Position numbers and translations under genes: made by a program | The notes under the pieces: generated by a model | The model's database searches: none | What the model was told of the DNA's origin: nothing | The model's input: the letters and a program-made list of their open reading frames with translations, nothing else | Assembly: GCA_017992605.1 (NCBI GenBank) | Contig: JAGOOG010000006.1 | Span: 55,276-119,275 of the forward strand | Reading direction: 5' to 3' | From: Deltaproteobacteria bacterium | GTDB taxonomy: Bacteria > Desulfobacterota > Desulfomonilia > UBA1062 | Length of the DNA: 64,000 nucleotides | Shown: positions 4,199-63,553 of the stretch, piece by piece | How positions within the stretch are numbered: position 1 is the stretch's first letter | Layout: each line of letters opens with the position of its first letter

Positions 4199-4217
4199 GA
4201 CACCCCGGGCGGATGCT

Positions 4218-7200
4218 CTAGGGCCGTTCACCCAGCAGCGTTGCGAGCACCCGGACCTCGTACCCCGATGCATCGACCACATGTCTGAGCTCGGCGGCCG
4301 CATCCGATGCCTCGCGCAGGGCCCTCTTCATCGCCCCTGCGGTCTTCTTCCCTGCCAGACGGCGCAGGGCCGTACAGAGGGCGAGCCACGAGATCAGGGT
4401 ATCCATGGACTCCTTGTTGAACCACCACCTGTCGCCGAAGAGATTGAACCCCAGGAAGTCCCTCACGGTGGAATCCACGAGCATGTCCCTCAGCAGAATA
4501 CCCATGTCGCGCATGGTCGATACACCCTGATGCCTGGCGAGGATGCCTATGAGCGTGACTTCGTACCGGGCCCTGGACTCGTCCGCGCCGAGCTCGACAA
4601 AGGTCCTGGTTACGGCATGCCCGAGCATCCAGTCGTCCATGAGCGAAGCGGAACGTGCCGCGGCACCCTCGTCGCCGGCGAGCCTGCCGAGCGGCGCCAC
4701 GATCGCCCAGAGCAGGGGGATCCGCCATGCCCACAGATCGGACGACGGCGTTTCCGGAATCAGGCAGAGCAGGTCACCGATGTGTTCATCCCCCTCCCAG
4801 GACGGCTTGTGCCGGTGCCTGTTCACGGTGAAGAGGGCGTCCAGGAGCAGGCACGTCTCGTCGCCCGCGACCTTGTCCCGGGCAGGCCAGCCCGCGAACT
4901 CCCGTGCATTCTTCAGGAATGAGGACAGCCTCCCGCTGAAGACCGCAGGGGTCGTTCCCGTGCGCATCCCCCCGGACACGAGCACGGGCAGGGCATCCCC
5001 CGCGATCATCTCGCCGAAGGGCCTGAGCACCTTTTCCACGGAGAGTTCACGGAGCGCGGTCGTCACATCGGGCACGCCCCTGCCCATGAGCCGCTGTTCA
5101 AGCTCGGCACACCTCCCGTCAAAATCGTGGATCTCGCCGAACGAAGAGAAGACGTGGCACTTGAAGGCGCCCAGGCGGATCGCGAGTCCGTCGCGCCAGA
5201 TGCCCCGGCTGCTCCTGAGGTATTCGAGGCCTCCACGCTCGTCTCGCAGGACGTAGTAGGCGGCATCTTCGTTCTTCAGCGCGAGACCCTCTCCCAGAGA
5301 TTTGTGAACGATATGACGTCTGGTGCCCTGCTCCACGTTCATGCCCACGGACCTGGAGATGGTACCGACTGCCTCTGAGAACCTGTTGTTGTAGACCACC
5401 AGGGACCTCTCGTCCCCGTACCTGTTGGAATAGGCAAACACGTCCTCGTTCACGTGGCCTTCAGGGGTGCGGAAGTCGTAGAGCACGAAGTGTTCCACCC
5501 CGGAGAACATCCTGCGCTTCTTGAACAGCGGGAAGATCTCCTGCTCGTGGCGCCACACGAGGTGACTGTCTACCGGTTCGTCCCAGTAGGATCGCCGGTA
5601 CTCCATGCCGTATTTTTCCGAGAAGCCCTCGACCTGTCCGTGACCGAACATGGGAAGCCCCGGCAGGGTGGCCATGAGCGTGGCAACCCCGAAATACTTG
5701 TCGTCCTTGCCGAAACCGTGCACCGCAGGTTCCTCGTCGGGGTTGTTCATGAAGTTCACGAAGCGCCTGAGGATCTCGGGATTGAAGCGGAGCACGTTCT
5801 TCATGACATCCCGGTACTTGCTGTTCTCCTCGGCCTTGAGCATGTTCATGAAGGCCGAGTTGTACACCCGGTGCATACCCAGGCTCCGAACGAAGTACCC
5901 CTCCATGAGCCAGAAGGCCTCGGCCAGGAGGAGCGTGTTGGGTGCTTCGGCTGCGATGCGGTCCACGAGCTCGCGCCAGAACTCCACCGGAAAGAGCCGC
6001 TCGAAATCGTCGGGGGACACGCTGTGGCCTGCCCTCGACGGGATGTCGCCGCCGTAGCCGGGCGCCGGATACCAGAGGCGCTGGAAGTGTCGCTTGGCAA
6101 GGGTCATGGCCGCATCGAAGCGTATGATGGGGAACCTCTTCGCAATGGCGATGGTCTGGCCGATCACGGCCTGGCGAACCTCGTGCTTGAGAAAGTCGAG
6201 CTGCGCCGTGTCGTTCCAGGGCATGCTCGTCCCGTCGTTCCCGTGGTAGATGTAGCGGTCCTGGCCGGTCCACCGGTCATGCCTGCGGAAGACCACGGCC
6301 GCGTCGGTGCGGTTCCAGTACCCGTCCTCGATCTGGATGACCACCCGGTCGTCCTGCGAGAGATTTGTTCCGGTGAACCGGTATGCCGGGAACGGCGGGT
6401 GATCTAGCTGGATGAACCAGTCCGGGTGCTCGATGACCCAGCGTGAGTAGATGCCCATGTGGTTGGGCACCATGTCCGTGGCCATGCGTATGCCGTAGCG
6501 CAGGGCCCGGTCCTTGAGGTTCTCGAAGGCATCATCGCCCCCGAGCTCGGATGCGATGATGTAGTCGTAGAGGGAATAGGCTGAGGATTCGGCCTCGGGG
6601 TTGCCGGTCATCCTCTTGATCGTCTTCGAGGCCGGGCTGCGCTCCCATATGCCGATGAGCCAGAGACCCGTGAAACCCCAGCGGGACAGGATCTCGAGCT
6701 CCTCGTCCGGTATCCGGTCGAGGCGGCTGATGTCGCGGTTGTACTTCACCGAGAGCTGGTGAAGCCATACGTACACGCTCTTGGCCATGAGCACGAGGCT
6801 GGGCATCCAGTCCTCGTCGGGGCTGAACCGCTCGATGTCCTCGTAATCCCTCAGGCCGAACGTGATCACGGGCGCGTACCCCTTGCCGATGAACCGTGCC
6901 CTGGTTTCCTCCTTGATGAGGTCGAGGCTGCTCAGGAGCCTTATGTAGAGTTCGGCCAGGAGATAGCCCCAGTGCTTGCGGATGTACTCGAGCTGTTCGA
7001 AGAGGGAATGCGGCGCGGCCCGCAGAGGCGCCAGGAGCAGGTCGAGGAGCGTCTGGCCGAAGGGCCCGAAGGGTGTTATGCTCCTGAAGAGTTCGTCGAT
7101 GAACGAGATGATGTCGAGGTACGGCGTTTCCTTCCTGAGCGCGGTGTCGTCGAAGAGTTCGTGGTAGTTCGACAGTGCTCTGTTCTCGTTGGAGATGTAG

Positions 7201-7643
7201 AGCAGCAGCATCTCCTCCATGGCGATGAGCCTGTTTGACACCCCACCGGTGCGGGAGGCCACGTATTCCTGCACCGTCATGTTGCCCGTGTACACGTCCC
7301 GCGGCGGGAACTGGTGGAGGAACTGCTCGATGGTGCGGTCCACGTCAGGGAGCCTTGTCGATGCGTAGTCGTAGGCGTCCCTCATGATATTGGGGTTCAC
7401 CTGCCTTCGGTAGAGCTCGATCATAAAGTGCATGATCTCGTCGATGAGCCCCATGGCGTTGATGTCGGATGCCCGCGCAGCCCTTTCCGGATGGCTGGCT
7501 GCATCGCGGATGCGGTTCATCCTGTCCGCGAAGTCCCGGGCAGCCTGGGGACTGGCCAGGATGACATTGCCCGTGGTGGTGAACAGGGCCTGGTCGAAGC
7601 TGTAGAGGTCTCTCGCCTTGCGGGAGATATGAAATTCGTACAT
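4218..7643 (-). CDS. alpha-amylase family (GH13-like) large multidomain glycosidase/glycosyltransferase
   Basis: Central region carries GH13 signatures: GIRMATDMVPNH (region I), IIRFDAAMTL (region II catalytic Asp), LLLAEAFW (region III Glu), FVNFMNNPDE (region IV-like). About 270 aa N-terminal and about 440 aa C-terminal extensions have no family I recognise. Confidence 0.65.
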   Translation of the reverse strand: MYEFHISRKARDLYSFDQALFTTTGNVILASPQAARDFADRMNRIRDAASHPERAARASDINAMGLIDEIMHFMIELYRRQVNPNIMRDAYDYASTRLPDVDRTIEQFLHQFPPRDVYTGNMTVQEYVASRTGGVSNRLIAMEEMLLLYISNENRALSNYHELFDDTALRKETPYLDIISFIDELFRSITPFGPFGQTLLDLLLAPLRAAPHSLFEQLEYIRKHWGYLLAELYIRLLSSLDLIKEETRARFIGKGYAPVITFGLRDYEDIERFSPDEDWMPSLVLMAKSVYVWLHQLSVKYNRDISRLDRIPDEELEILSRWGFTGLWLIGIWERSPASKTIKRMTGNPEAESSAYSLYDYIIASELGGDDAFENLKDRALRYGIRMATDMVPNHMGIYSRWVIEHPDWFIQLDHPPFPAYRFTGTNLSQDDRVVIQIEDGYWNRTDAAVVFRRHDRWTGQDRYIYHGNDGTSMPWNDTAQLDFLKHEVRQAVIGQTIAIAKRFPIIRFDAAMTLAKRHFQRLWYPAPGYGGDIPSRAGHSVSPDDFERLFPVEFWRELVDRIAAEAPNTLLLAEAFWLMEGYFVRSLGMHRVYNSAFMNMLKAEENSKYRDVMKNVLRFNPEILRRFVNFMNNPDEEPAVHGFGKDDKYFGVATLMATLPGLPMFGHGQVEGFSEKYGMEYRRSYWDEPVDSHLVWRHEQEIFPLFKKRRMFSGVEHFVLYDFRTPEGHVNEDVFAYSNRYGDERSLVVYNNRFSEAVGTISRSVGMNVEQGTRRHIVHKSLGEGLALKNEDAAYYVLRDERGGLEYLRSSRGIWRDGLAIRLGAFKCHVFSSFGEIHDFDGRCAELEQRLMGRGVPDVTTALRELSVEKVLRPFGEMIAGDALPVLVSGGMRTGTTPAVFSGRLSSFLKNAREFAGWPARDKVAGDETCLLLDALFTVNRHRHKPSWEGDEHIGDLLCLIPETPSSDLWAWRIPLLWAIVAPLGRLAGDEGAAARSASLMDDWMLGHAVTRTFVELGADESRARYEVTLIGILARHQGVSTMRDMGILLRDMLVDSTVRDFLGFNLFGDRWWFNKESMDTLISWLALCTALRRLAGKKTAGAMKRALREASDAAAELRHVVDASGYEVRVLATLLGERP

Positions 7644-7793
7644 CGGTTCAGGCCCTCACCGTATGCGGGTCACGTGGGACGGAGCACTCCATCTTCATCT
7701 ATGATAATTCCATTCCAACGCCCATCCAAGGTTGTAGCAGAATGTAGGGGAACAGATCCTGCCAGTCAAGACAAAAGCGAGGCAGCGTCGGTA

Positions 7794-8936
7794 CTATTCA
7801 ATCCTTTCGAGGGCGTCCCTGATTTCCTGCCGGACCTTGTCCGCGTCCGGTGACACGTGGCACCTCCGGTGGCAGTTGGGACACAGGGCCACGGTGTTCT
7901 CGACGGTGTCCGGCCCGCCTTCAGCGAGGGGCAAGACATGGTGCGTCTCCAGATACCATGATCCCCGCACGTCCCGGAAAGGACCCGGTTTCCGACACAG
8001 CTCGCAGATCCCCCGTGCCTGCTGCAACACCCAGGCTCTGACCAGGGGGTCCTTCTCATACTCCGACCGCGTGGACTGCAGTCTGTTCGGGTGAGGATAT
8101 CCCTTCGGCGCGCCGGCGAGTTTCTTGCCGAGCAGATTGCCCGTCCTCCTGTCCAGTTCGAACGGGTCCGCAGTCGAGGTATAGTCCCGCCCGTTGAGGA
8201 ACTTCCTCCCGAAGATGATCCTCCTGATCCTCTCCGATGTCTCCGGGCTGATGTTTGTCCTTGGTGGATAGGCCTGTACGGTCGGGTGACACAGCTCCTG
8301 GAGCACCGAAGAGATGTTCTGCAGCCTGAACTCGACGGACCCCCTGCTCCTGTTGATGAGCTCGAAGCTGAGAAACTGCCTGATGACCTCGGCCCTGTTG
8401 AACTTCTTCCCCTTGAGCTCCCTGTTCAGCATGGTGAAGTACGCATAGACAGCGGCCTCGAGTTCCTGGTCCGCCCAGTCGGTGAAGTCCGGATCGACGT
8501 CTTCATGGCAGGCTGCCGATTCGATCAGGTCGACCCGGTACACATCCTTCCCGATTCGTTCGAACCTCATCACCGGCCGCTCCTCGTCGAACTCCTCGTT
8601 CAAGGCATATTTTCTGTATACGTACGGAAACCGGTCTATGATCTGCTCAGAGAAGTCGGTCTTCCAGAGAAGCCGGTAGCGGGACCCCATCTGATCCATG
8701 TGAATGTGGGCGTCATAGGCGACAGAACCGAGCACAAGCTGGACAGGCATCGGTTCAGAAAGGCCTTTCGCAGGCAGGCCAAAGAAGGAGACGATCTCTC
8801 TGGGGACGCTCATCTCCCGGTGCAGGAACGTGGACCTGTCCATGTGCTTCAGGGCGACATCTTCGGATAAGACATCCCAGGAGTAGGCAGAAGACGGATA
8901 GTTCATGTCGTGTCCATTTCTGTCGGATTGCTCCAT
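7794..8936 (-). CDS. McrA/COG3183-like HNH endonuclease fusion (unassigned N-terminal domain + C-terminal HNH)
   Basis: C-terminus LETHHVLPLAEGGPDTVENTVALCPNCHRRCH is a canonical HNH ββα-Me zinc-finger motif. The N-terminal ~300 aa match no family I recognise. Flanking intergenic DNA is AT-richer than the window. Confidence 0.7.
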   Translation of the reverse strand: MEQSDRNGHDMNYPSSAYSWDVLSEDVALKHMDRSTFLHREMSVPREIVSFFGLPAKGLSEPMPVQLVLGSVAYDAHIHMDQMGSRYRLLWKTDFSEQIIDRFPYVYRKYALNEEFDEERPVMRFERIGKDVYRVDLIESAACHEDVDPDFTDWADQELEAAVYAYFTMLNRELKGKKFNRAEVIRQFLSFELINRSRGSVEFRLQNISSVLQELCHPTVQAYPPRTNISPETSERIRRIIFGRKFLNGRDYTSTADPFELDRRTGNLLGKKLAGAPKGYPHPNRLQSTRSEYEKDPLVRAWVLQQARGICELCRKPGPFRDVRGSWYLETHHVLPLAEGGPDTVENTVALCPNCHRRCHVSPDADKVRQEIRDALERIE

Positions 8937-9148
8937 ATAAGAACCATCGTGACAGTGCTGTCAATCCGATTGATGCTCAAGGGAGGGGATGACAGTCACT
9001 TTTCGTACGCACGGTTACAAATATTTCCAGAGCCGGACATTACGATCGCCATAACATGCTGACATCACGGAGTCATATCCTCTGGCACGTAGATTGTAAG
9101 CTTCACTTCCAGTGGTCCATTTCATGGAATGGGGAAAGAAGGTATGCC

Positions 9149-9379
9149 ATGATCACATTGCGGTATTCCCTCAACCACGGTTTATCATGTCAGGTCTACG
9201 ATGACAACCGTCTCATCGGGCGTGTTCGCATCGAAAAGAAGATGACCAGCGACAAATTCCTTGCCATCATACTCGGAGATGCAAAAGACGCCCAGGAGTG
9301 CCTACAGAGGGAGTTCGACACCATCTTCGATGCACTGGACTGGCTGGAGGAACGAAGGGGGAAGAGCACGTCTGCCTGA
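9149..9379 (+). CDS. hypothetical small protein (76 aa)
   Basis: ORF MITLRYSLNHGLSCQVYDD... with AGAAGG RBS 7 nt upstream of the ATG. The long ORF-track call starting at 9056 is trimmed to this start. Confidence 0.4.
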   Translation: MITLRYSLNHGLSCQVYDDNRLIGRVRIEKKMTSDKFLAIILGDAKDAQECLQREFDTIFDALDWLEERRGKSTSA

Positions 9380-9489
9380 CAGTAAGGGGCCTCCGTAGGA
9401 GACATCCTCCCCCTCCGACACGACCCGCCGTGGCATGCCGGAAGGGGTGATGAAGAAGGCTCCCCCTTTGCCATTCATCCGTGAACGGC

Positions 9490-10269
9490 TCAGTTGCCCC
9501 TCCACCTTTTTCCATTCCCTTTGTCGTTGTGCACATACGCCTGCTTCGCCTTCCCGTTGCCCTGCTTGAACTTGTTGTCATTCGGCCTTGCCAGTTTCTG
9601 TACGCCCTCATTCGGCCTGACTTTCTTCTGCCTGTTCTGGTCCACCTTCATATCGTTCCTGTTCCTGCTGATCCGATCCCTGTCCTTCACATTTCTTTCA
9701 CGGCTGATGTCACGGTCTATGACCCGGAAGCTCCGCCCCTCGTTGCGGTACCTCATGATCTTTCCCGGTGCATACCGGTGATGCTCCGACATGAACTTCA
9801 GGTTCACCTGGTTCACGATGTCCCGATCCCGCAGGTCTCCCCTCTTCCATGTGCCCCTCGGGTGACTGTTATAGTACCCGTATGCAGGTACGTAGCGGTG
9901 AACGACCACGGGAACGTAGTAGACGTCAGGCCTCAACCCGAAATAGTACGTAATGTCCATCCAGCTCATGCCCCTCATGCGGAGGTCCGCCACGAGACCC
10001 GGATCGACACCCGCCATCCGCGCAATGAAGAACACCACCGGAAGCTCTTCCTCATAGATCCCGCGCTCGCGGATGACCACAATGTCCCTCTCGGGTACGC
10101 CGTAATACTGGCCCATGGAGAAGATGAATCCGTCAATGCCCCCGCTGCCTCCGGATATCCCGACGTTCCACTCGGTCTGCGCAAACGAGGGGGATACCAT
10201 GGACATGAGCAGGAGAAACAATCCTGTGGTCGCACCGATCAATGCCGGCCTGATCTTCACTGTCTTCAT
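9490..10269 (-). CDS. secreted hypothetical protein with K/R/N/D-rich low-complexity C-terminal tail
   Basis: AAAGGAG RBS 8 nt before MKTVKIRPALIGATTGLFLLLMSMVSPSFAQ, a signal-peptide-like start with an A-Q|T cleavage. Tyr/Pro-rich core and a basic repetitive tail. Confidence 0.55.
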   Translation of the reverse strand: MKTVKIRPALIGATTGLFLLLMSMVSPSFAQTEWNVGISGGSGGIDGFIFSMGQYYGVPERDIVVIRERGIYEEELPVVFFIARMAGVDPGLVADLRMRGMSWMDITYYFGLRPDVYYVPVVVHRYVPAYGYYNSHPRGTWKRGDLRDRDIVNQVNLKFMSEHHRYAPGKIMRYRNEGRSFRVIDRDISRERNVKDRDRISRNRNDMKVDQNRQKKVRPNEGVQKLARPNDNKFKQGNGKAKQAYVHNDKGNGKRWRGN

Positions 10270-10341
10270 CTCTGGATCTCCTTTCTTACCCACTCAGACG
10301 ATCCGGAGACGGCCTTTGTTTACATGCGGGGTTCGATGAAA

Positions 10342-14291: not shown

Positions 14292-14849
14292 TCAGACCTC
14301 CATGATCTCCTTTTCCTTGGCGGCGAGCAGCTCGTCGATCTGCTTGATGGATCCGTCCGTCAGCTCCTGGACCTTGTCCTGGGCGACCTTCAGCTCGTCC
14401 TTGTTGATTTCCTTTTCCTTCTCGAGATCCTTCAGCAGTGCATTGGCATCCCTGCGGTGATTGCGGACCTCGATGCGGTAGTCCTCGGCATTCTTCTTGA
14501 CCATCTTCACGAGGTCCCGCCTGCGCTCCTCGTTCAGCGGCGGAATGGGAATACGGATGATCCTGCCGTCGTTGTTGGGTGTGAGCCCGAGTTCGGACTT
14601 CAGGATCGCCTTTTCGATGGGTGACAGGGCACCCTTGTCCCACGGCTGAATGGTGATGAGCCTTGCCTCGGGAACCGCCAGGGAGGCCAGCTGGTTCAGC
14701 GGTGTGAGCGTGCCGTAATAATCCACCATGATGCCGTCCAGGATGCCTATGGACGCACGGCCCGTGCGCACCTTCTGCTGCGAGGCCTTCATGGCCTCGA
14801 TGGTCTTGTTCATATCGCGCTTCATATCGTTGATGATCTCGTCAACCAT
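14292..14849 (-). CDS. frr: ribosome recycling factor
   Basis: 185 aa, typical RRF sequence (VRTGRASIGILDGIMVDYYG...). Confidence 0.95.
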   Translation of the reverse strand: MVDEIINDMKRDMNKTIEAMKASQQKVRTGRASIGILDGIMVDYYGTLTPLNQLASLAVPEARLITIQPWDKGALSPIEKAILKSELGLTPNNDGRIIRIPIPPLNEERRRDLVKMVKKNAEDYRIEVRNHRRDANALLKDLEKEKEINKDELKVAQDKVQELTDGSIKQIDELLAAKEKEIMEV

Positions 14850-15564
14850 TCCGAGTCCTCCTCACTCTGACGACGGATCCGACCGCTTCGCCATCAAGCA
14901 GCCGCGAGAGTCCATCCTGCTCGAATATGTTGATCACCCTCACCTCGAGATCGTTGTCACGGCACAGGGACACGGCCGTTGCATCCATGACCCCGAGGTT
15001 CAACCCGAGCACGGTGTCGAAGTCGAGCTCCGCGAAGAACCGTGCATCCTCGTGTTTTACCGGGTCCTTGTCGTAGACGCCGTTCACCTTGGTGGCCTTT
15101 ATGAGGACATCCGCTCTGATCTCCAGTGCCCTCAGGGCGGCGTTCGTGTCGGTGGTGAAGAACGGGTTGCCCGTACCGCCCGCAAAAATGACGACCACGC
15201 CTTCTTCGAGGTATCGCACGGCCTGGTGGGTTGCCATGGGCTCGGCAACGCCCGTCATGGGGATGGCGCTCATGACCCGGCACGCCACACCCTGGTTCAC
15301 GAGCGCTCCTCTGAAGGCCAGTGCGTTCATGACCGTGGCCAGCATGCCCATATGGTCGGCGCTCACCCGGTCGATGACGCTCGATGCGCCGACGCCCCTG
15401 AAGAAGTTGCCGCCGCCGATGACGAGCCCGACCTGGATGCCGCGGGCAGCCGCTGCCTTCACCGGGACGACGAAGCGCTGAAGCGTCGCCTCGTCGATAC
15501 CGTTACCGCTGCCCCCTGACAGGGCCTCGCCGCTCAGCTTGAGAAGTATGCGCCGATAGAGCAA
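14842..15564 (-). CDS. pyrH: UMP kinase
   Basis: MLYRRILLKLSGEAL... amino-acid kinase fold, 240 aa, inside the rpsB-tsf-pyrH-frr synteny. Confidence 0.95.
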   Translation of the reverse strand: MLYRRILLKLSGEALSGGSGNGIDEATLQRFVVPVKAAAARGIQVGLVIGGGNFFRGVGASSVIDRVSADHMGMLATVMNALAFRGALVNQGVACRVMSAIPMTGVAEPMATHQAVRYLEEGVVVIFAGGTGNPFFTTDTNAALRALEIRADVLIKATKVNGVYDKDPVKHEDARFFAELDFDTVLGLNLGVMDATAVSLCRDNDLEVRVINIFEQDGLSRLLDGEAVGSVVRVRRTRNG

Positions 15565-15573
15565 GAACGACCC

Positions 15574-16173
15574 CTAGAGCTCTTCTCCCACCTGGTAACG
15601 TGCAAACCTTCTGATCAGGCATTTCTCTCCGGTCTTAGCCATGAGCTCATCCAGGAGCTGCTTGATGGTCTTGTCCTGGTCCTTCACGAAGTGCTGGTCC
15701 ATGAGGCAGCGCTCGGAGTAGAACTTGCCGAGCTTGCCCTCCACGATCTTGTCGAGGACCTTCTCGGGCTTGCCTGTCTTGAGGGCCTGCTCCTTGAGGA
15801 TCTCCTTCTCCTTGCTGAGGACATGCTCGGGGACCTCGTCACGGGTGACCCAGTCCGGGCTTGCAGCCGCTATCTGCATGGCCACGTCCTTGACGAAGTT
15901 GTTGAAATCGTCGGACTTGGCTACGAAATCGCTCTCGCAGTTCACCTCGAGGAGCACGCCGATCTTCCCGCCCATGTGTATGTACGATGCCACAGTTCCC
16001 TGGCTGGCCGCCCTCCCTGATCGCTTGTTGGCGACCTCTATGCCTTTCTTTCTGAGGATCTCGACCGCCTTGTCGAAGTCCCCGCCCGTCTCTTCCAGGG
16101 CCTTCTTGCAGTCCATCATGCCTACACCGGTCTTGTCCCTGAGTTTCTTGACTGTTTCAGATGTTATCTGCAC
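15574..16173 (-). CDS. tsf: translation elongation factor Ts
   Basis: N-terminal UBA-like LRDKTGVGMMDCKKAL signature of EF-Ts, 199 aa. Confidence 0.95.
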   Translation of the reverse strand: MQITSETVKKLRDKTGVGMMDCKKALEETGGDFDKAVEILRKKGIEVANKRSGRAASQGTVASYIHMGGKIGVLLEVNCESDFVAKSDDFNNFVKDVAMQIAAASPDWVTRDEVPEHVLSKEKEILKEQALKTGKPEKVLDKIVEGKLGKFYSERCLMDQHFVKDQDKTIKQLLDELMAKTGEKCLIRRFARYQVGEEL

Positions 16174-16205
16174 GACTCCCTCCGTTGCATGAACTATGCG
16201 TGGTC

Positions 16206-17081
16206 TTATTCTCCCGCGTTGTTGCCGGCGGCCTCGTCGGCAGCATCGCCCTGATCGGCAGGCGTGCTGTCCTTGACGATGATCTCGATCTCACCCTCGA
16301 GACCCTTTCCCATGGTCTCGCCCCTGGGGGCCTTGCCCTTCGGCTGTCCCGCATCCACGGCCGCCGCCTCCTTCACCTCGGTGGCAAGCTTTTCCTGCCA
16401 GATCTGGCTGCCCTGGTCCACCGCATCGGCAACCTTGGAGGTGAAGAGCCTGATAGCCCTGATGGCGTCGTCGTTGCCCGGGATGACATAATCGATGAGC
16501 GTCGGGTCACAGTTCGTGTCGACGATGGCGACAATGGGTATCCTGAGCTTCTTCGCCTCCTGGACAGCGATGTACTCGCGTGACGGGTCAACGATATACA
16601 GGACGTTGGGGAGGCCGTTCATGTCCTTGATGCCGTGCAGGGAGCGCTCGAGCTTCATCTTGTGGCGCTTCATGCTGATCTGTTCCTTCTTGGGGTAGTT
16701 CTCGATGGTGCTGTTGTCGATGATCGACTCGAGCCACTTGAGCTTGTCCACGCTCTTGCGGATGGTCGAGAAGTTGGTCAGCGTGCCGCCGAGCCAGCGG
16801 AAATTCACGTAGAACGCCCCGACACGGCCCGCTTCTTCCTCTATGGCATCCTGGGCCTGCTTCTTTGTCCCTACGAAAAGCACCTTGCCGCCGTTGGCAG
16901 CGGTTTCGCGGATGACATCGCAGGCCTTTTCGAAGAGCTTTTCGGTCTTCTGCAGGTCTATGATATGGATGCCGTTGCGGGAACCGAAAATGTAGGGTTT
17001 CATCTTGGGATTCCACCTCGGTGTCTGGTGACCGAAATGGACCCCGGCCTCGAGAAGCTGCTTCATGGTGACGACTGACAT
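16206..17081 (-). CDS. rpsB: 30S ribosomal protein S2
   Basis: [27 protein letters not shown]... canonical S2 N-terminus, with an acidic C-terminal extension. Confidence 0.95.
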
Positions 17082-17265
17082 GTACTACCTCCTTGGTTTT
17101 TCCTCCGTCCTGCGGTCCCGATCCCTGCACAACAGGGACACCTGCGGTCCCGTCATGGTACCGGACGTGTGTGCTGGTTGAGCGGTTTACCATACCATTG
17201 TCTCTGTTTCAAGGGATTAAATGCTGTAACTTGTGACATGGAGGTGAAATACTCTGCGGCATCGT

Positions 17266-17311
17266 CCCGCACCATGCATCACGGTCATTCTTCCGGGATG
17301 CATGGTGCGGG
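17266..17311. repeat. perfect 15-bp inverted repeat (CCCGCACCATGCATC / GATGCATGGTGCGGG) with 16-nt spacer
   Basis: Read directly from the sequence. It lies between the isochorismatase-family stop (17326) and the rpsB start (17081). No U-tract follows on the minus strand. Confidence 0.8.
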
Positions 17312-41268: not shown

Positions 41269-42168
41269 TCAGGTTCTTTTGAATGCGGTCATGAAGCTGC
41301 TCTGACGGTCGATCTCAATGTCGAGCTGACCCATGAGCGAGCCGATCTCTTCGGTGGAGAAGCTGCTGCGGTATTCCTGAACAATGGGCACGATATCCTG
41401 GTTGATCGTGGTGAAGTGATGGTCCCTCATGGGGGTGATTCCCTTGGCCGTGCACAGAACATCGGCCAGATGCACGCATACGGCGAACACCTGATGGTTC
41501 CTGGATGATGCCGGGTCGTGATGACAGGCCACCGCATCCACCACGTCAGCCGGGAACATCCACGAGGTCAGCAGCATGCGTCCCACCTCCTGGTGCGTAA
41601 TGCCAAGTATCCTTTCCTCGAGCGCGTGGTACCCGTAGAGATTCCCATCCTCTTCCATGGCGGTCAGAAGATAGTGGAAGGTCTCGCTCATGTACTGGGA
41701 GATGAAGATCTTGCCAACATCATGGAGGAGCCCTCCCACGAAGAATTTGCCGTCCACCTTCATGTTCAGGTACTTGGCAACCATGCGTGTTCCCACGCCA
41801 ACGGAGAACGAGTGTCTCCACAACTGTTCAGAGAAATCAGTTCCCTTCCGGTCGAACATCTGGAGAACGGACATGCTCAGGGCGATATTCTGTATCTCCT
41901 GGAATCCGAGGACCACCACTGCATGGGAGACATTGGAGATCTTCTTCACGAAGCCATAATAGGGTGAATTTGCAACCGTGAGGATCCTCGTCGTGAGTGC
42001 CGGATCGCTCTCTATGATGTTCGTGAGGTCGATGGCGGACGAGTTCTTCCTCGAGATCACCTCAATGATTTCATGAATGATGCTGGGCAGAGTCAGGATA
42101 TCCGGGGCTCTGGTCAAGATACCCACGATGCGTTCACGCTCGGTCGCAGAATCTCTGTACTCGTACAC
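41269..42168 (-). CDS. HDOD domain signalling protein
   Basis: HDOD pattern (LPSIIHEIIEVI..., ILTVANSPYYG, VVLGFQEI, HDVGKI). Confidence 0.8.
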   Translation of the reverse strand: MYEYRDSATERERIVGILTRAPDILTLPSIIHEIIEVISRKNSSAIDLTNIIESDPALTTRILTVANSPYYGFVKKISNVSHAVVVLGFQEIQNIALSMSVLQMFDRKGTDFSEQLWRHSFSVGVGTRMVAKYLNMKVDGKFFVGGLLHDVGKIFISQYMSETFHYLLTAMEEDGNLYGYHALEERILGITHQEVGRMLLTSWMFPADVVDAVACHHDPASSRNHQVFAVCVHLADVLCTAKGITPMRDHHFTTINQDIVPIVQEYRSSFSTEEIGSLMGQLDIEIDRQSSFMTAFKRT

Positions 42169-42267
42169 ATAGAATCAGTCGGTAGGACCGGCATCTTTCT
42201 TAAATATGCAGGCGTGGCCATTCCTGCATACCCATGACCCACCAGACCCCGCGCGGGTGTTCTCATA

Positions 42268-43392
42268 ATGAAATTGGACTCAAGAGTGAAGTCCTTGATC
42301 CCGATAAGATCGGTGATGGAAACGAGTGTTATTCTCTGGGTTATCATCATTCTGGCCGCGGGCGTTGTCATGACGATCGTCCTGACAAACTCCAGAAAGG
42401 AAGACAGGAAGCCTGTACTGAAAAAGTCTCCTGCCAGGTACGTGACCGTATCCTCCAGCGAGGACATACAGACGTTCATGGATGTCTACAGTCTCGAATG
42501 GAAGCCTGACCGCGACAAAGAGCCGGAGATTCCCCCGCAGGTCGAAGAGATCATCGACAAGATAGACAACATATCCCCGCTTGTCACGGAACTCTCATCC
42601 AAGCTGAACGATCCGGACATCAACCCGAAGGAAATCAGCAAGATCATCATACAGGACCAGGGGCTTACCTCTTTCATCCTCCGCCGGGTCAATTCACCCT
42701 TCTATGGCCTCCTCCAGAAGGTCGACAATATCTTCAATGCCATCGTTATCCTCGGTTATAACGAGATCTACCGGATCGTCATGGAGGAACGGACCCGGAA
42801 GATCGGTATCCAGCCTGACAAGACAGAATGGGTCCACGCCAATCTCACCTCGAATATTGCGGCGTACCTCGCCGGTGTCAGCCGCCTCGGGGTTCCGGGC
42901 GGCACCATGGTCACCCTGGGAATGCTCCATGACATCGCTCGGACAGTCATGACCAGGTCACTGCCCCAGCCCGAGACAGGATTTTCCGTTGACCCGCGAC
43001 AACACCTCAAGCAGGAGATCGACCTCTACGGCATCGACCATGCAACCCTCGGCGGCATCCTTGCACAGCGGTGGGGCATGCCCCCCAGACTCGTGTCATG
43101 CATAGCAAGACATCACTGGCCCATGTTCTGGCCATTGAGGGACATCGGCCAGTCCAACAATGACACCATCAAGGAGCTTTCCATTCTCGCCGTCTCTGAT
43201 ATCGCAGCAAAGAACTTCACCCAGGAGATCACCGGAGCCTATATCGGCGACGATTATTATCGCTACATCAACAAGCCTCCCAGGATGGACAGCATCCTGA
43301 TCCCGGAGATCACCAAGGATCTCAAACGTATCCGCAGGATCATGCTTAATACCGACGAGGAAAGCCAGGATCTTCTCGAGAAGGTCCAGTAG
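42268..43392 (+). CDS. membrane-anchored HDOD domain protein
   Basis: N-terminal TM helix, then the HDOD core (ILRRVNSPFYGLLQKVDNIFNAIVILGYNEI, GMLHDIARTV). Confidence 0.75.
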   Translation: MKLDSRVKSLIPIRSVMETSVILWVIIILAAGVVMTIVLTNSRKEDRKPVLKKSPARYVTVSSSEDIQTFMDVYSLEWKPDRDKEPEIPPQVEEIIDKIDNISPLVTELSSKLNDPDINPKEISKIIIQDQGLTSFILRRVNSPFYGLLQKVDNIFNAIVILGYNEIYRIVMEERTRKIGIQPDKTEWVHANLTSNIAAYLAGVSRLGVPGGTMVTLGMLHDIARTVMTRSLPQPETGFSVDPRQHLKQEIDLYGIDHATLGGILAQRWGMPPRLVSCIARHHWPMFWPLRDIGQSNNDTIKELSILAVSDIAAKNFTQEITGAYIGDDYYRYINKPPRMDSILIPEITKDLKRIRRIMLNTDEESQDLLEKVQ

Positions 43393-43414
43393 TCTTGTTC
43401 CCCCGATCGACACG

Positions 43415-43453
43415 AAAAGAAAGGCCGGGAATAACCCGGCCTTTCACCTTTTC
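43415..43453. terminator. bidirectional rho-independent terminator
   Basis: GC-rich hairpin AAAGGCCGGG-aataa-CCCGGCCTTT flanked by an A-tract on one side and a T-tract on the other. Sits between convergent genes. Confidence 0.75.
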
Positions 43454-43473
43454 TGAGGTAATGATCTGCCTGG

Positions 43474-43740
43474 TCAACTGATTATTTGCGAGATACGATG
43501 CTCATTGAGGTTGTATAATCCCAAAGAGGCGTTCTCCATGTCTCTGGTCACGTGGCAGAGGATCTTCTTTGCCTCCTCCACGGTCTCTACCCGCGATCGT
43601 GAAGCCTGCTTATTCTCCACGGAGACGATGTCCTCCACCTGTTTCCTGGACCGCGTATCCTGGACCTTTCTGGCAAACTGGTCCTCTTTGTCCTTTGTGA
43701 CCATGTTGATTACATTCCCCAATTCAGGATTGACCTTCAT
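43474..43740 (-). CDS. hypothetical small protein (88 aa)
   Basis: Charged, helical-looking ORF downstream of rsmI. No confident family assignment. Confidence 0.4.
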   Translation of the reverse strand: MKVNPELGNVINMVTKDKEDQFARKVQDTRSRKQVEDIVSVENKQASRSRVETVEEAKKILCHVTRDMENASLGLYNLNEHRISQIIS

Positions 43741-43791
43741 AATGGTCCCCCTTCAGAAAATATACATAACACGTATCGGAAGGCTTCATAT

Positions 43792-44628
43792 TTACTTGAG
43801 AGTTTTTTTCACATCGAGGATCATCGGGTATAGTTCATTCCTGTTGATGCCGGTTTCCCGGGAGAGCATCAGGAGGGCGTCCCTCACGGAACAGCCTCTT
43901 TCAAGAAGCTTGCCGGCCATCTCTCGCAGGGTGTCGGCCTGGAAAGACTCTTCATGCGTGGCGCTGTTCACGAGCACCGTGACCTCGCCTCTGACCGGGG
44001 AGTCCTGCACTGCACCGAGGACCTTTTCAACCGTGCCGACCAGATACTGTTCATGAATCTTGGTGAGTTCCCTGGCCAGGCATATCTCCCGGTCTGGAAC
44101 CCGACGGTGAATCATAAAGAGCGTCCGCTCGATTCTCCTGGGTGATTCATAGAAGATCGTCACCTCATCAGAGAGGCCCATCCTCTGGATCTCCTTTTCC
44201 ATGGCCTCCTTTTTCCTCGGGAAGAAGCCAATGAACCGAAAAGGATGCGTGAAGCCCGATGCCGAAAAGGCTGTAATAAGGGCGGAAGGTCCAGGAAGCG
44301 CGACTACGGGGATGCCACGAGACCTCGCCAGACCGATTACCCGTGAGCCCGGATCAGACACTGCAGGGGTACCGGCATCGCTGACCAGGGCCACGTGTTT
44401 CCCTTCTTCCAGCTGATCGATGATATATGCCGACCGTCTGGCCTCGCTGAACTTTTCACAGGACACGAGCTGTTTGGAGATACTGTAGTGACTCAGCAGC
44501 TTCCTGGTGTGTCTGGTGTCTTCGCAGAAAATGATATCCACATCCCGGAGCACATCGAGTGCACGCAGCGTGATGTCCCTGAGGTTTCCCAGTGGCGTAG
44601 GAACGATATACAAGGTCGGTTTCCCCAT
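43792..44628 (-). CDS. rsmI: 16S rRNA (cytidine1402-2'-O)-methyltransferase
   Basis: LYIVPTPLGNLRDITLRALDVL...DIIFCEDTRHT tetrapyrrole-methylase-fold N-terminus typical of RsmI. Confidence 0.9.
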   Translation of the reverse strand: MGKPTLYIVPTPLGNLRDITLRALDVLRDVDIIFCEDTRHTRKLLSHYSISKQLVSCEKFSEARRSAYIIDQLEEGKHVALVSDAGTPAVSDPGSRVIGLARSRGIPVVALPGPSALITAFSASGFTHPFRFIGFFPRKKEAMEKEIQRMGLSDEVTIFYESPRRIERTLFMIHRRVPDREICLARELTKIHEQYLVGTVEKVLGAVQDSPVRGEVTVLVNSATHEESFQADTLREMAGKLLERGCSVRDALLMLSRETGINRNELYPMILDVKKTLK

Positions 44629-44713
44629 GGAAGGCAGACACTTTCTCCTTTTTCACCAGCTTTTGTTATGATATATATGATTATTACCGTTAAGGGAAGG
44701 AAGAGGCCTGTCC
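44629..44713. promoter_or_regulatory. AT-rich divergent promoter region
   Basis: TTGTTATGATATATATGATTATTACC lies between divergent rsmI and the decarboxylase gene. It contains -10-like TATGAT/TATATA hexamers. Confidence 0.3.
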
Positions 44714-46426
44714 ATGGAGTCTTTGAAGCTCGACGGCATGCTGCACGACAAGAACATCGAGAGCACTCCCGAGTACATGCGTAAGCTCTTCATAATGCCC
44801 GACTCATCGGACAGGTTCGTGGAATTCGGGGTTCATCTCCTCGACATGATCCATGACTTCTTCAAGGAAAAAGGCGGCATCCATTCTTCCATATCCATGG
44901 AAGACCTTGCCAATATCTTCTGCAACATAGAGATGCCCTCTCATCCCCAGCTCATAAAAGACGTACTCAACGAGATCAAAAACAACATAATCAAACATTC
45001 GGTGAAGGTGGCCAACCCCTATTACATTGGCCACATGACCAGCGCAGTTCCCTACTTCATGATTCTTCTCGAGATGATCGCAGTGAGCCTCAACCAGAAC
45101 CAGGTGAAGATCGAGAGCGCCAAGGCATCGACCTTTGTGGAACGGGAGTTTCTGTGCTGGATCCACCATCTCATCTATGACAACATCCCCGAGTTCTACA
45201 GGAAACATATCCAGAACCCCAAGATAGCTCTGGGAAACATAACCTCCGACGGCACCATGGCCAACCTCACGGCACTGACTCTGGCCATGGCGAAGGCATT
45301 TCCGCCCGACACGAGAGGCTTCAGGGGGGTCCGCGTGGAGGGGCTTGCCCGTGCCCTCGACCACTACGGATACCGCCAGGCTCTGTTCCTCGTATCCAGA
45401 CGCGGGCACTATTCCATCTGCAAGGCCGGAACCATCCTGGGCATCGGTGAGCACGGGGTCGTCCACGTACCGGTTCAGCCCTGCCTGAACACCATCGACA
45501 TAAGCAAGTTGCTGTGTATCATTGACAAGATACGGAAAGAGGACAAGGCGGCAGGCCTACCCACGAAGTTCGTCGCCCTTGTCGGCATAGCCGGGACCAC
45601 GGAGACAGGCAACATCGATGACCTGGACTCCCTTGCGGAGATCGCCCGCGACCTGGGCGCCCATTTCCACGTGGACGCTGCATGGGGTGGAGGGGCATTG
45701 CTCATGGAGGGGGCGCGGCCCATGATGAAGGGCATCGAGAAGGCCGACTCCGTGACCATGGACGCACACAAGCTGCTCTACGCGCCGAACAGCATGGGCA
45801 TCTGCGTATTCAGAAACGGGGATGATTCACGTCACCTCTACCATACATCCAATTACATCATCCGCGAGGGTTCCGTGGATCAGGGCCGGTTCACCATCGA
45901 AGGTTCGCGTTCGTTCTCGTGTCTCAAACCGTGGGCAGCCATCAAGATTATCGGCAGACACGGGTACAGGCTCATCTTCGACCATGCCCGCGACCTGCAG
46001 AATACCTTTGTGGAGTTCATAGAGCGCGATCCGCTTTTCGAACTCATGAACAAACCCGAGCTCTTTATCATAAACTACCGTTTCGTCCCCGAGGAGCTCA
46101 GGTCACAGCTCAAGAACCTCATGAAGAACCCGAAGAAGAACTCCGACCGCATCACCCTCATCAACAAGATAATCAACACCATCAACATCGAGCTACACAA
46201 GACCATCAGGGACCATGACACGTCCTTCGTGTCTCGCACCAGGCTGGAGTCCACCCCGTATGCCCCGAGAAAGATCGTCGTGCTCCGGGCCATTACCATC
46301 AATCCGAACACGGAGCGCTACATGCTCAAGCAGGTCCTGAACGAGCACAGGAGCATGGGCATCAGGATTTGGAACGACATGAAGAAGACCAGCGGCGACT
46401 CCAGAGAAGTCCTCGGCTCTTCATGA
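44714..46426 (+). CDS. group II PLP-dependent amino-acid decarboxylase
   Basis: HVDAAWGGG and the PLP-lysine motif SVTMDAHK. Fold-type I decarboxylase architecture, 570 aa. Confidence 0.8.
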   Translation: MESLKLDGMLHDKNIESTPEYMRKLFIMPDSSDRFVEFGVHLLDMIHDFFKEKGGIHSSISMEDLANIFCNIEMPSHPQLIKDVLNEIKNNIIKHSVKVANPYYIGHMTSAVPYFMILLEMIAVSLNQNQVKIESAKASTFVEREFLCWIHHLIYDNIPEFYRKHIQNPKIALGNITSDGTMANLTALTLAMAKAFPPDTRGFRGVRVEGLARALDHYGYRQALFLVSRRGHYSICKAGTILGIGEHGVVHVPVQPCLNTIDISKLLCIIDKIRKEDKAAGLPTKFVALVGIAGTTETGNIDDLDSLAEIARDLGAHFHVDAAWGGGALLMEGARPMMKGIEKADSVTMDAHKLLYAPNSMGICVFRNGDDSRHLYHTSNYIIREGSVDQGRFTIEGSRSFSCLKPWAAIKIIGRHGYRLIFDHARDLQNTFVEFIERDPLFELMNKPELFIINYRFVPEELRSQLKNLMKNPKKNSDRITLINKIINTINIELHKTIRDHDTSFVSRTRLESTPYAPRKIVVLRAITINPNTERYMLKQVLNEHRSMGIRIWNDMKKTSGDSREVLGSS

Positions 46427-62797: not shown

Positions 62798-63553
62798 TCA
62801 GGTCAATGCCTTTTTCGAGAACGACAGGTCTTGAAACACTGGCTCCATGGTACTGTGATACGAGCCGTCTTCATTGAAAATGAACAGCGGCCGTTCCATG
62901 ACCATCTCCTTCCCGCCCCCGCTCGTTCCACAGACCAGGCAGAGCTCGGCGGTCCTGTGCGGTGCCGTGTAGGCACAGCACATGCGTTTCGGTTCCAGCC
63001 CGCTGACGCGCATCGCGCACAATAGGTCGGGGAGCCTCCTCGACGGATACACGATATAGAACCTTCCTGCCGGTTTGAGGAGCTCGCGAGTCCTTTTCGT
63101 GAGGGTGTCCAGATCCAGCGAGATTTCGTGCCGGGCGACAGCCTTCTCTTCGTGCGGGTTCACCCTGCCGGTCGTCAGCGGTCTGTAGGGGGGATTCGTC
63201 ACGACGGCGTCCACCCGGGGGCCCTGGTAATCCCTTATGTCCGAGCGGATGACCGTGATCCTGTCATCGAGGCCTGCGAGCTCCACCGAGCGCCTGGACA
63301 TCTCGGCCAGGTCTTCCTGGATTTCGACGCCTGTCACGATGAGACCTTTCATGGCCGCAAGCAGTATCGAAACGACCCCGGACCCTGATCCGATCTCGAT
63401 CACTCTGGTCCCAGGGTCTTCTTCGACAAAGGCCCCGAGAAGGTAGGCATCGAGCGAGTACCGGTACCCTTTCTTTTTCTGGAAAATGGAAAGGCTGCCG
63501 CAGGAAAGGCGATCGAGGGTCTCATCCCTGCCTGGTATGAAACGTTCTCTCAT
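62798..63553 (-). CDS. SAM-dependent methyltransferase, tRNA1(Val) m6A37 methyltransferase (TrmN6/YfiC)-like
   Basis: SAM-binding VIEIGSGSGVVS and the amino-methyltransferase NPPY motif. Confidence 0.7.
   Translation of the reverse strand: MRERFIPGRDETLDRLSCGSLSIFQKKKGYRYSLDAYLLGAFVEEDPGTRVIEIGSGSGVVSILLAAMKGLIVTGVEIQEDLAEMSRRSVELAGLDDRITVIRSDIRDYQGPRVDAVVTNPPYRPLTTGRVNPHEEKAVARHEISLDLDTLTKRTRELLKPAGRFYIVYPSRRLPDLLCAMRVSGLEPKRMCCAYTAPHRTAELCLVCGTSGGGKEMVMERPLFIFNEDGSYHSTMEPVFQDLSFSKKALT

Follow-up and report, generated by a model that had tools for sequence, protein, structure and literature searches.

The window analysed here, a stretch of 64,000 nucleotides from contig JAGOOG010000006.1 of a deltaproteobacterial genome assembly, contains a solitary gene for an HNH nuclease (positions 7794-8936, minus strand), which is the subject of this report. 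On one side of the gene lies an alpha-amylase-like glycosidase; on the other, a small open reading frame (ORF) and a gene for a secreted protein are followed by genes for a DUF89 (ARMT1-like) protein and a Mrp/NUBPL protein. The original prediction for the region 7644-10341 had described the nuclease, the small ORF and the secreted protein as one horizontally acquired islet, with a nuclease built in the manner of Type IV, modification-dependent restriction enzymes. The three ORFs are indeed real and lie between the glycosidase and the DUF89/mrp pair, as Pfam annotation of the flanks confirms. Specifically, the nuclease gene encodes 380 residues from its first ATG, has 484 homologues in a large protein collection (~35 of them full length), and shows a ratio of nonsynonymous to synonymous substitution rates (dN/dS) of 0.20 against its orthologue on contig L002, from a Thermodesulfobacteriota relative, with values of 0.16-0.22 in each of the three domains described below. 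It is therefore a real and intact gene under purifying selection. Its GC content is 0.587 and its GC at third codon positions (GC3) 0.787, next to a GC3 of 0.789 for the neighbouring DUF89 gene. Because most full-length homologues begin at the equivalent of M11 (MNYP...), the true start is likely at 8906, and the product may thus have 370 residues.

An AlphaFold2 model of the whole protein, built on 32 homologues, reaches a mean predicted local distance difference test score (pLDDT) of 84.8, and low confidence is confined to residues 1-10 and 141-151, which implies three domains. As judged from such predicted models, on which all fold assignments in this report are based, the protein is composed of a B3-like barrel, a tri-helical helix-turn-helix (HTH)-like module and an McrA-type HNH nuclease. 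The N-terminal part of about 300 residues, previously said to match no recognisable family, resolves into two folded domains plus an N-terminal extension of the nuclease domain.

The nuclease domain (residues 256-380; 7797-8171, minus strand) is of the McrA type, i.e. a beta-beta-alpha-Me, Zn-finger HNH domain, and its catalytic core (residues 311-360; 7857-8006, minus strand) gives the sole Pfam match in the 380-residue protein (HNH, 8.9e-11). The HNH motif noticed earlier at the C-terminal end of the product, which contains HHVLPLAEGGPDTVENTVALCPNCHRRCH, is intact: the zinc ligands of the CxxC...CxxC pattern (C311, C314, C352 and C355) are invariant in 32 homologues, as are H332/H333, N347, H356 and H360, and thus the catalytic His/Asn/His as well. 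Residues 252-380 are homologous to EcoKMcrA (hhalign E 2e-40), in both sequence and structure, over EcoKMcrA residues ~149-276, and on these alignments the domain is a true homologue of the EcoKMcrA nuclease, in line with the McrA-like character first ascribed to it. EcoKMcrA, from the e14 prophage of E. coli K-12 (PDB 6GHC), is a Type IV HNH endonuclease dependent on 5-methylcytosine (5mC) or 5-hydroxymethylcytosine (5hmC), which it binds through its NEco reader. A NEco-like reader was considered for the window protein and rejected, since hhalign gives no alignment to McrA upstream of residue 252 and the N-terminus shows no NEco fold; a B3-like barrel and a tri-helical domain stand in its place. 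More distantly related is the HNH domain (2e-7) of ScoMcrA (PDB 5ZMM), an enzyme of the order head-SBD-SRA-HNH that depends on phosphorothioate or 5mC. Neither its SBD nor its SRA domain was matched in the window protein, which also lacks the head domain, and the NCBIfam model PT-DNA_restrict reaches only 20 bits (cutoff 180), through the HNH part alone. A sister branch of the family does have the ScoMcrA_N head domain (PF26345), placed before the B3-like domain.

The N-terminal domain (residues 11-140; 8517-8906, minus strand), when modelled alone, reaches a pLDDT of 89.5 and a predicted template modelling score (pTM) of 0.82. The model is an open beta-barrel of ~7 strands and two helices that matches solved B3-like DNA-binding pseudobarrel domains, and Foldseek agrees. 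Among the folds against which a comparison of the N-terminus had been proposed (SRA, EVE/PUA, YTH, ASCH or B3), it is therefore the B3-like fold that emerges, with SRA, EVE, YTH, ASCH and NEco all absent from the structural matches of the domain, and at the level of the fold it is a DNA-binding domain. Its invariant residues are S19, W20, K30, D33, S35, F37, P45, F52, R88 and W91. In the known enzymes, the B3-like pseudobarrel uses two arms, the N-arm and the C-arm, to clasp the DNA in the major groove. With the arms defined as in PMC3973309, the invariant K30, D33, K34, S35 and F37 are located on the strand-helix element equivalent to the N-arm of EcoRII-N and BfiI-C, while R86 and R88, also invariant, lie on the following strand. 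The domain may thus bind DNA in the major groove through such arms. Furthermore, the signature residues are kept down to ~26-30% identity, pointing to a single ligand shared across the family rather than to sequence specificities that have diversified. The same signature residues occur in the B3-like domain of a Bacillus thuringiensis plasmid protein (hhalign 99.8%); a homologue search with the N-terminal domain alone was uninformative, returning just one 116-residue fragment among 5 candidates.

The middle domain (residues 152-255; 8172-8483, minus strand) is a predicted tri-helical domain of the homeodomain/Myb-like kind, with helices at residues 156-174, 181-189 and 198-214 and a conserved R..E.R.QNIS pattern on helix 3. 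It matched no Pfam family and no PDB sequence, profile comparison against PDB sequences included. It does match positions 5-94 of the 280-position profile of the PADLOC candidate PDC-S36 (2.2e-22), and by this profile match it is the ~95-residue N-terminal module of that candidate. The remainder of PDC-S36 (profile ~100-280) is a Shedu/DUF4263-like nuclease, whereas the window protein carries the McrA-type HNH domain and has no full-length match to the profile, in contrast to P0177, a true PDC-S36-like protein, which matches positions 5-184 and has SduA_C. Weak Myb matches were obtained in 2 of 23 stand-alone members of the middle-domain family, and the all-helical structural matches, which came without residue ranges, probably correspond to the three helices; the module may accordingly be regarded as a putative DNA binder. 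An SBD-type phosphorothioate reader was also considered for this domain and found no support in profile comparisons. The module occurs widely, in 1746 clusters at E <= 1e-3, and its fusion partners include HNH, KAP NTPase (QatA/PifA-like), the Shedu SduA_C nuclease, N6 DNA methylase and sigma/HARE-HTH proteins. The N-terminal module of PDC-S36, hitherto uncharacterised, thereby receives a fold assignment and a list of fusion partners.

To look for the B3-like subfamily elsewhere, metagenome contigs were scanned with a hand-built degenerate DNA motif for W-x9-K-x-[ML]-D-K-S-x-F-x7-P-x-[DE]-x4-F. The scan gave 55 loci, 53 of which encode the B3-like domain; viral contigs scanned for the N-terminal domain gave no true relatives. 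Among the 53 loci, the architecture of the window protein (B3-like, middle domain, McrA-type HNH) recurs, and the B3-like domain is further joined to more divergent HNH, HNH_2 and NOV_C/DUF3883 nucleases, with DUF3427 also present in two loci (DUF3427-B3-HNH_2 and B3-DUF3427-NOV_C). DUF3427 and DUF3883 are also found in proteins of the McaZI and YenY4I type, so that the B3-like domain stands where the reader stands in proteins of the Type IV style; to this extent, by fold and by architecture, the reader-plus-HNH build originally proposed holds. Specifically, DUF3427-DUF3883 proteins (the McaZI group) and EVE-DUF3427-PD-(D/E)XK (YenY4I) bind or cleave DNA with 5mC or 5hmC and restrict T4gt (PMC6765204). 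The modular Type IV enzymes of Lutz et al. 2019 (EVE/SRA-HNH, McaZI, YenY4I) share with the B3-like family the plan of an N-terminal reader and a C-terminal HNH or DUF3883 nuclease, and both mostly have no methyltransferase nearby, but the reader here is neither a PUA-superfamily nor a DUF3427 domain. No characterised member with a B3-like reader was found in the literature searched, nor any description of a B3-like/HNH fusion or of PDC-S36, although the literature searched was limited and this is not proof of novelty.

Some further relatives were also observed. In L109 (203-1978, plus strand), L114 and L116 the domain order is swapped to tri-helical, B3-like, HNH, which indicates that the two putative DNA-binding modules are shuffled independently. 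A protein of 1112 residues (L105:2528-5863, minus strand; MTKZ01002430.1) starts with the B3-like and tri-helical domains and continues with RNA_pol_A_CTD, Sigma70_r4 and HARE-HTH/WH_Rok, with no recognisable nuclease; its contig shares the assembly prefix MTKZ01 with L001, the contig that matches the window (see below). Protein P0162 (1107 residues) has the same C-terminal domain set together with the tri-helical module. Finally, proteins of 373 residues in L113 (3984-5102, minus strand), L125 and L144 carry the B3-like domain at residues 108-234 between regions without Pfam matches, and a C5 methyltransferase motif is located ~4 kb from the B3-like gene in L125 and L144.

The explanation that best fits these data is a stand-alone, restriction-type nuclease of the McrA family directed against foreign, probably modified, DNA. 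As a whole statement we would give it a probability of roughly 0.58, and less to modification dependence as such. More specifically, the C-terminal HNH/Zn-finger domain would cut DNA using a divalent metal and, by analogy with EcoKMcrA, would probably also dimerise the protein, while the choice of target would be delegated to the two N-terminal modules with DNA-binding folds, the B3-like pseudobarrel and the tri-helical homeodomain/Myb-like domain. Host DNA would be spared because cleavage would need some property of foreign DNA; a modified base or backbone is the most plausible candidate, and would make the protein a Type IV enzyme. That such a feature is required seems most likely because no methyltransferase is found here or beside most relatives, and because the B3-like domain takes the position of a reader in Type IV-style proteins. 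Membership in Type IV is therefore argued by analogy, and so is a role in defence, which is suggested by the defence-island and prophage contexts of relatives.

Several observations weigh against this explanation. Residues 1-300 have no Pfam match at E <= 0.01, the B3 and EcoRII-N families included. The B3-like domain is acidic (isoelectric point, pI, 5.3; family median 5.6), which is unusual for a DNA binder. The B3-like domains characterised in restriction enzymes (EcoRII, BfiI, NgoAVII, UbaLAI, LlaJI) all read an unmodified specific sequence and are all accompanied by a cognate methyltransferase. In addition, the gene itself lies among housekeeping genes and has native GC, so that a defence role at this locus is extrapolated from relatives. 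The known enzymes differ from the window protein in several respects: EcoRII-N, BfiI-C, NgoAVII, UbaLAI and LlaJI.R1-N are joined to PD-(D/E)XK, PLD or McrBC-type machinery and have a methyltransferase alongside, whereas here an acidic B3-like domain is joined to the McrA-type HNH of a solitary nuclease.

The first alternative is that the protein cuts unmodified DNA at specific sequences, much as Type II or IIS enzymes do, with the B3-like domain reading a fixed motif and the host protected by an unlinked methyltransferase or by avoidance of the motif. The B3-like enzymes just described combine PD-(D/E)XK, PLD or McrBC catalysis with an adjacent methyltransferase; the window protein has an HNH catalytic domain, and no methyltransferase adjoins its gene. 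The direct neighbours of the nuclease gene region are the glycosidase, the small ORF, the secreted protein, DUF89 and Mrp, so the gene is solitary, as had been predicted, and a motif scan of the window shows no methyltransferase motifs within 50 kb of it. The sole methyltransferase of the window with an xPPY motif (62798-63553, minus strand; 251 residues, MTS/small-domain) is of the RNA or protein type by Pfam, lies 54 kb away and is unlikely to be a cognate DNA methyltransferase. Most relatives likewise have none in their flanks: a methyltransferase motif was detected at 4 of 36 loci, by a crude scan that is insensitive and missed one Pfam-identified methyltransferase, and methyltransferases occur in only 2 of the Pfam-annotated family neighbourhoods. 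For the modular Type IV enzymes, such an absence of nearby methyltransferases was used as support for modification dependence (Lutz et al. 2019; PMC6765204). In addition, the specificities of Type II enzymes normally diversify, whereas the putative contact residues here are invariant to ~26-30% identity, and both the nuclease and the domains fused to it are of the Type IV style in architecture. An enzyme for unmodified sites is thus an unlikely explanation.

The genomic contexts of relatives bear on a second alternative, according to which the gene has been domesticated in this lineage as a housekeeping DNA-processing factor (for repair or recombination, or as a regulated nuclease or nickase) with no anti-phage function. 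In favour of this alternative, the gene keeps a stable, syntenic place among housekeeping genes in two lineages, has native GC and GC3, is under purifying selection and shows a synonymous divergence (dS) similar to that of the neighbouring genes; two other close homologues (L008 and L094) also lie between housekeeping genes. Against this stand a patchy distribution and changing surroundings. Indeed, at greater distance the nuclease gene is a mobile singleton: homologues at 66-67% identity are found in different neighbourhoods, one of them in a genome of 43% GC, and other genes flank the nuclease gene in L007, L008 and L086-L093. Several relatives are located in defence-island or prophage contexts. 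Family members occur beside Zorya genes, in an island with SIR2, Mrr_cat, FRG, a resolvase and a DUF4011-helicase, beside AbiTii and DUF4411/M78, and among PIN and PLD genes, while a Geomonas member adjoins a Dcm-Vsr-HNH cluster. Furthermore, only a few dozen full-length members were found, and Type IV enzymes are likewise often chromosomal singletons. Domestication is for these reasons regarded as distinctly improbable.

A minimal form of the protein, consisting of the middle and HNH domains only (~230-260 residues, no B3-like domain), is common in Pseudomonas and Massilia. One such gene was observed in Vibrio phage L9-1 (OR762784.1), a P2-like temperate phage, where a 228-residue protein annotated as hypothetical (L101:4007-4693, plus strand) has the middle and McrA-type HNH domains; the gene is directly downstream of the CI repressor gene and overlaps its end. 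The slot directly after CI is typical for prophage defence genes, and the L9-1 gene probably serves the prophage in restriction or exclusion.

That minimal proteins without the B3-like domain are widespread also invites a third alternative, in which this domain regulates or autoinhibits the protein, or senses a protein or ligand, and so gates an otherwise non-specific HTH-HNH nuclease in the manner of an abortive-infection effector. The acidity of the domain throughout the family and the pairing of the middle domain with KAP NTPases and Shedu-type effectors are compatible with this. The fold, however, is that of dedicated DNA-binding domains, with basic residues invariant on the presumed N-arm, and the B3-like domain is always fused to nucleases or to other DNA-binding modules, so a gating role appears very doubtful.

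A broader proposal can be built on the reading as a restriction-type nuclease. The Type IV reader folds known are those of the PUA superfamily (SRA, EVE, YTH, ASCH), NEco, winged helix, SBD and DUF3427, and in plant transcription factors and Type II enzymes the B3 fold is known to recognise sequence that carries no modification. Tentatively, the B3-like subfamily (SW...K-x-[ML]-D-K-S-x-F...GIP...R-x-R-L-F-W) could be an unrecognised class of readers for modified or non-self DNA, interchangeable with EVE, SRA and DUF3427 before HNH or DUF3883 nucleases, with the tri-helical PDC-S36-N module (>1700 clusters) as a second DNA-sensing module of defence effectors; this is a speculative proposal, and we would not expect all of it to hold. 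If true, (i) the B3-like pseudobarrel would add a new reader fold to the Type IV enzymes and (ii) a fold that reads unmodified sequence would have been recruited into solitary McrA-type nucleases. Type IV enzymes built from a reader and a nuclease are not only defence systems but also tools for mapping DNA modifications.

The genes around the nuclease can be followed in other assemblies. The window matches contig L001 of the metagenome assembly GCA_002049765.1 at 99.9% over 13.1 kb, and the order secreted protein, small ORF, HNH gene, glycosidase is preserved in a lineage of Thermodesulfobacteriota metagenome-assembled genomes (MAGs; L002-L006), where the identities are 55%, 78%, 74% and 86%, respectively. 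The outer flank differs there, with a ferredoxin gene in place of DUF89/Mrp. Compared with L002, dS and dN/dS are 0.58 and 0.15 for the glycosidase, 0.84 and 0.20 for the HNH gene, 1.02 and 0.26 for the secreted protein and 1.17 and 0.15 for the small ORF. The comparable dS values, the purifying selection and the conserved order show that the block has been inherited vertically and that all four genes are functional. The HNH gene has thus long resided between housekeeping genes by vertical inheritance and is not part of a recent island.

The composition of the region agrees with this. Its GC content (0.563) lies ~1.1 standard deviations below that of the window as a whole (mean 0.587, sd 0.022), a value equalled or undercut by 9.7% of windows of the same size, so the "AT-richer" character noted earlier is weak, the more so since the HNH gene itself is native in GC. 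Of the flanking DNA said to be AT-rich, the description applies to the 212 bp that separate the divergently oriented HNH gene and small ORF (8937-9148; GC 0.472); otherwise only the small ORF (0.524) is AT-richer. The intergenic region presumably holds promoters, and a consensus scan of it gave no match to the sigma-70 consensus. No meaningful direct or inverted repeats, tRNA, Rfam element, terminators or integrase were found at island boundaries around 7644-10341. The lowest GC in the window (~0.52-0.53) is reached elsewhere, at 41269-46426, where two HDOD proteins, a tetrapyrrole methylase and a PLP-dependent decarboxylase are encoded and no mobile-element or defence genes were seen; with such ordinary genes, low GC is no sign of an island there either.

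The small ORF (9149-9379, plus strand) encodes a 76-residue protein of unknown function that matches no Pfam, NCBIfam or PADLOC family. The mechanical ORF call begins at 9056 and gives 107 residues, but GAAAGAAGG precedes the ATG at 9149, which is most likely the start. Homologues were found only in L001-L006, with 72-78% identity in L002-L006 and a dN/dS of 0.15. A role as controller or immunity protein of the nuclease was considered and rejected, since there is neither a family match nor a counterpart beside other family members.

The secreted protein (9490-10293, minus strand; 259 residues from the ATG at 10269) has a signal peptide and the Lys/Arg/Asn-rich tail described earlier, the last 85 residues having a pI of 11.3, 31% Lys plus Arg and 14% Asn. 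It has 122 hypothetical homologues in Syntrophaceae and deltaproteobacterial MAGs, none with a Pfam domain, and in L096-L099 members of its family are found in envelope or housekeeping contexts with no HNH neighbour. It is thus a lineage-typical envelope protein family outside the nuclease system. Since neither this protein nor the small ORF was seen beside other HNH-family loci, the three genes are neighbours and do not form a system.

That the three genes are a single horizontally acquired defence or accessory islet is accordingly largely refuted and very improbable: their adjacency, kept in L002-L006, and the slightly lower GC with its AT-rich intergenic stretch are outweighed by the unremarkable deviation in composition, the lack of repeats, tRNA and integrase, the synteny with the glycosidase at matching dS in a diverged relative, and the separate occurrence of the secreted-protein family and of the other HNH-family loci. 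The conservation in relatives with native GC that the original prediction had named as evidence against its islet is largely what was found, and the clade-restricted small ORF does not form a functional unit with the other two genes. The annotation should therefore be corrected from "acquired island" to a long-resident nuclease singleton with two unrelated lineage genes.

Minor observations concern the flanking genes. The glycosidase (4218-7643, minus strand; 1141 residues) shows only a weak, partial Pfam alpha-amylase match (residues 315-409, 3.2e-7) and is mostly unannotated. In L002, the secreted-protein gene is separated from the small ORF by an extra gene of 107 residues without a Pfam match (9203-9526, minus strand); the window has nothing equivalent, with only 110 bp between the two. 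At the other end of the block, the glycosidase and a GATase_7 gene are directly adjacent in the window (4199-4218), whereas in L002 a phosphoglucomutase-like gene (449 residues) and a gene of 394 residues lie between them (14762-17307), which points to an indel between the two lineages.

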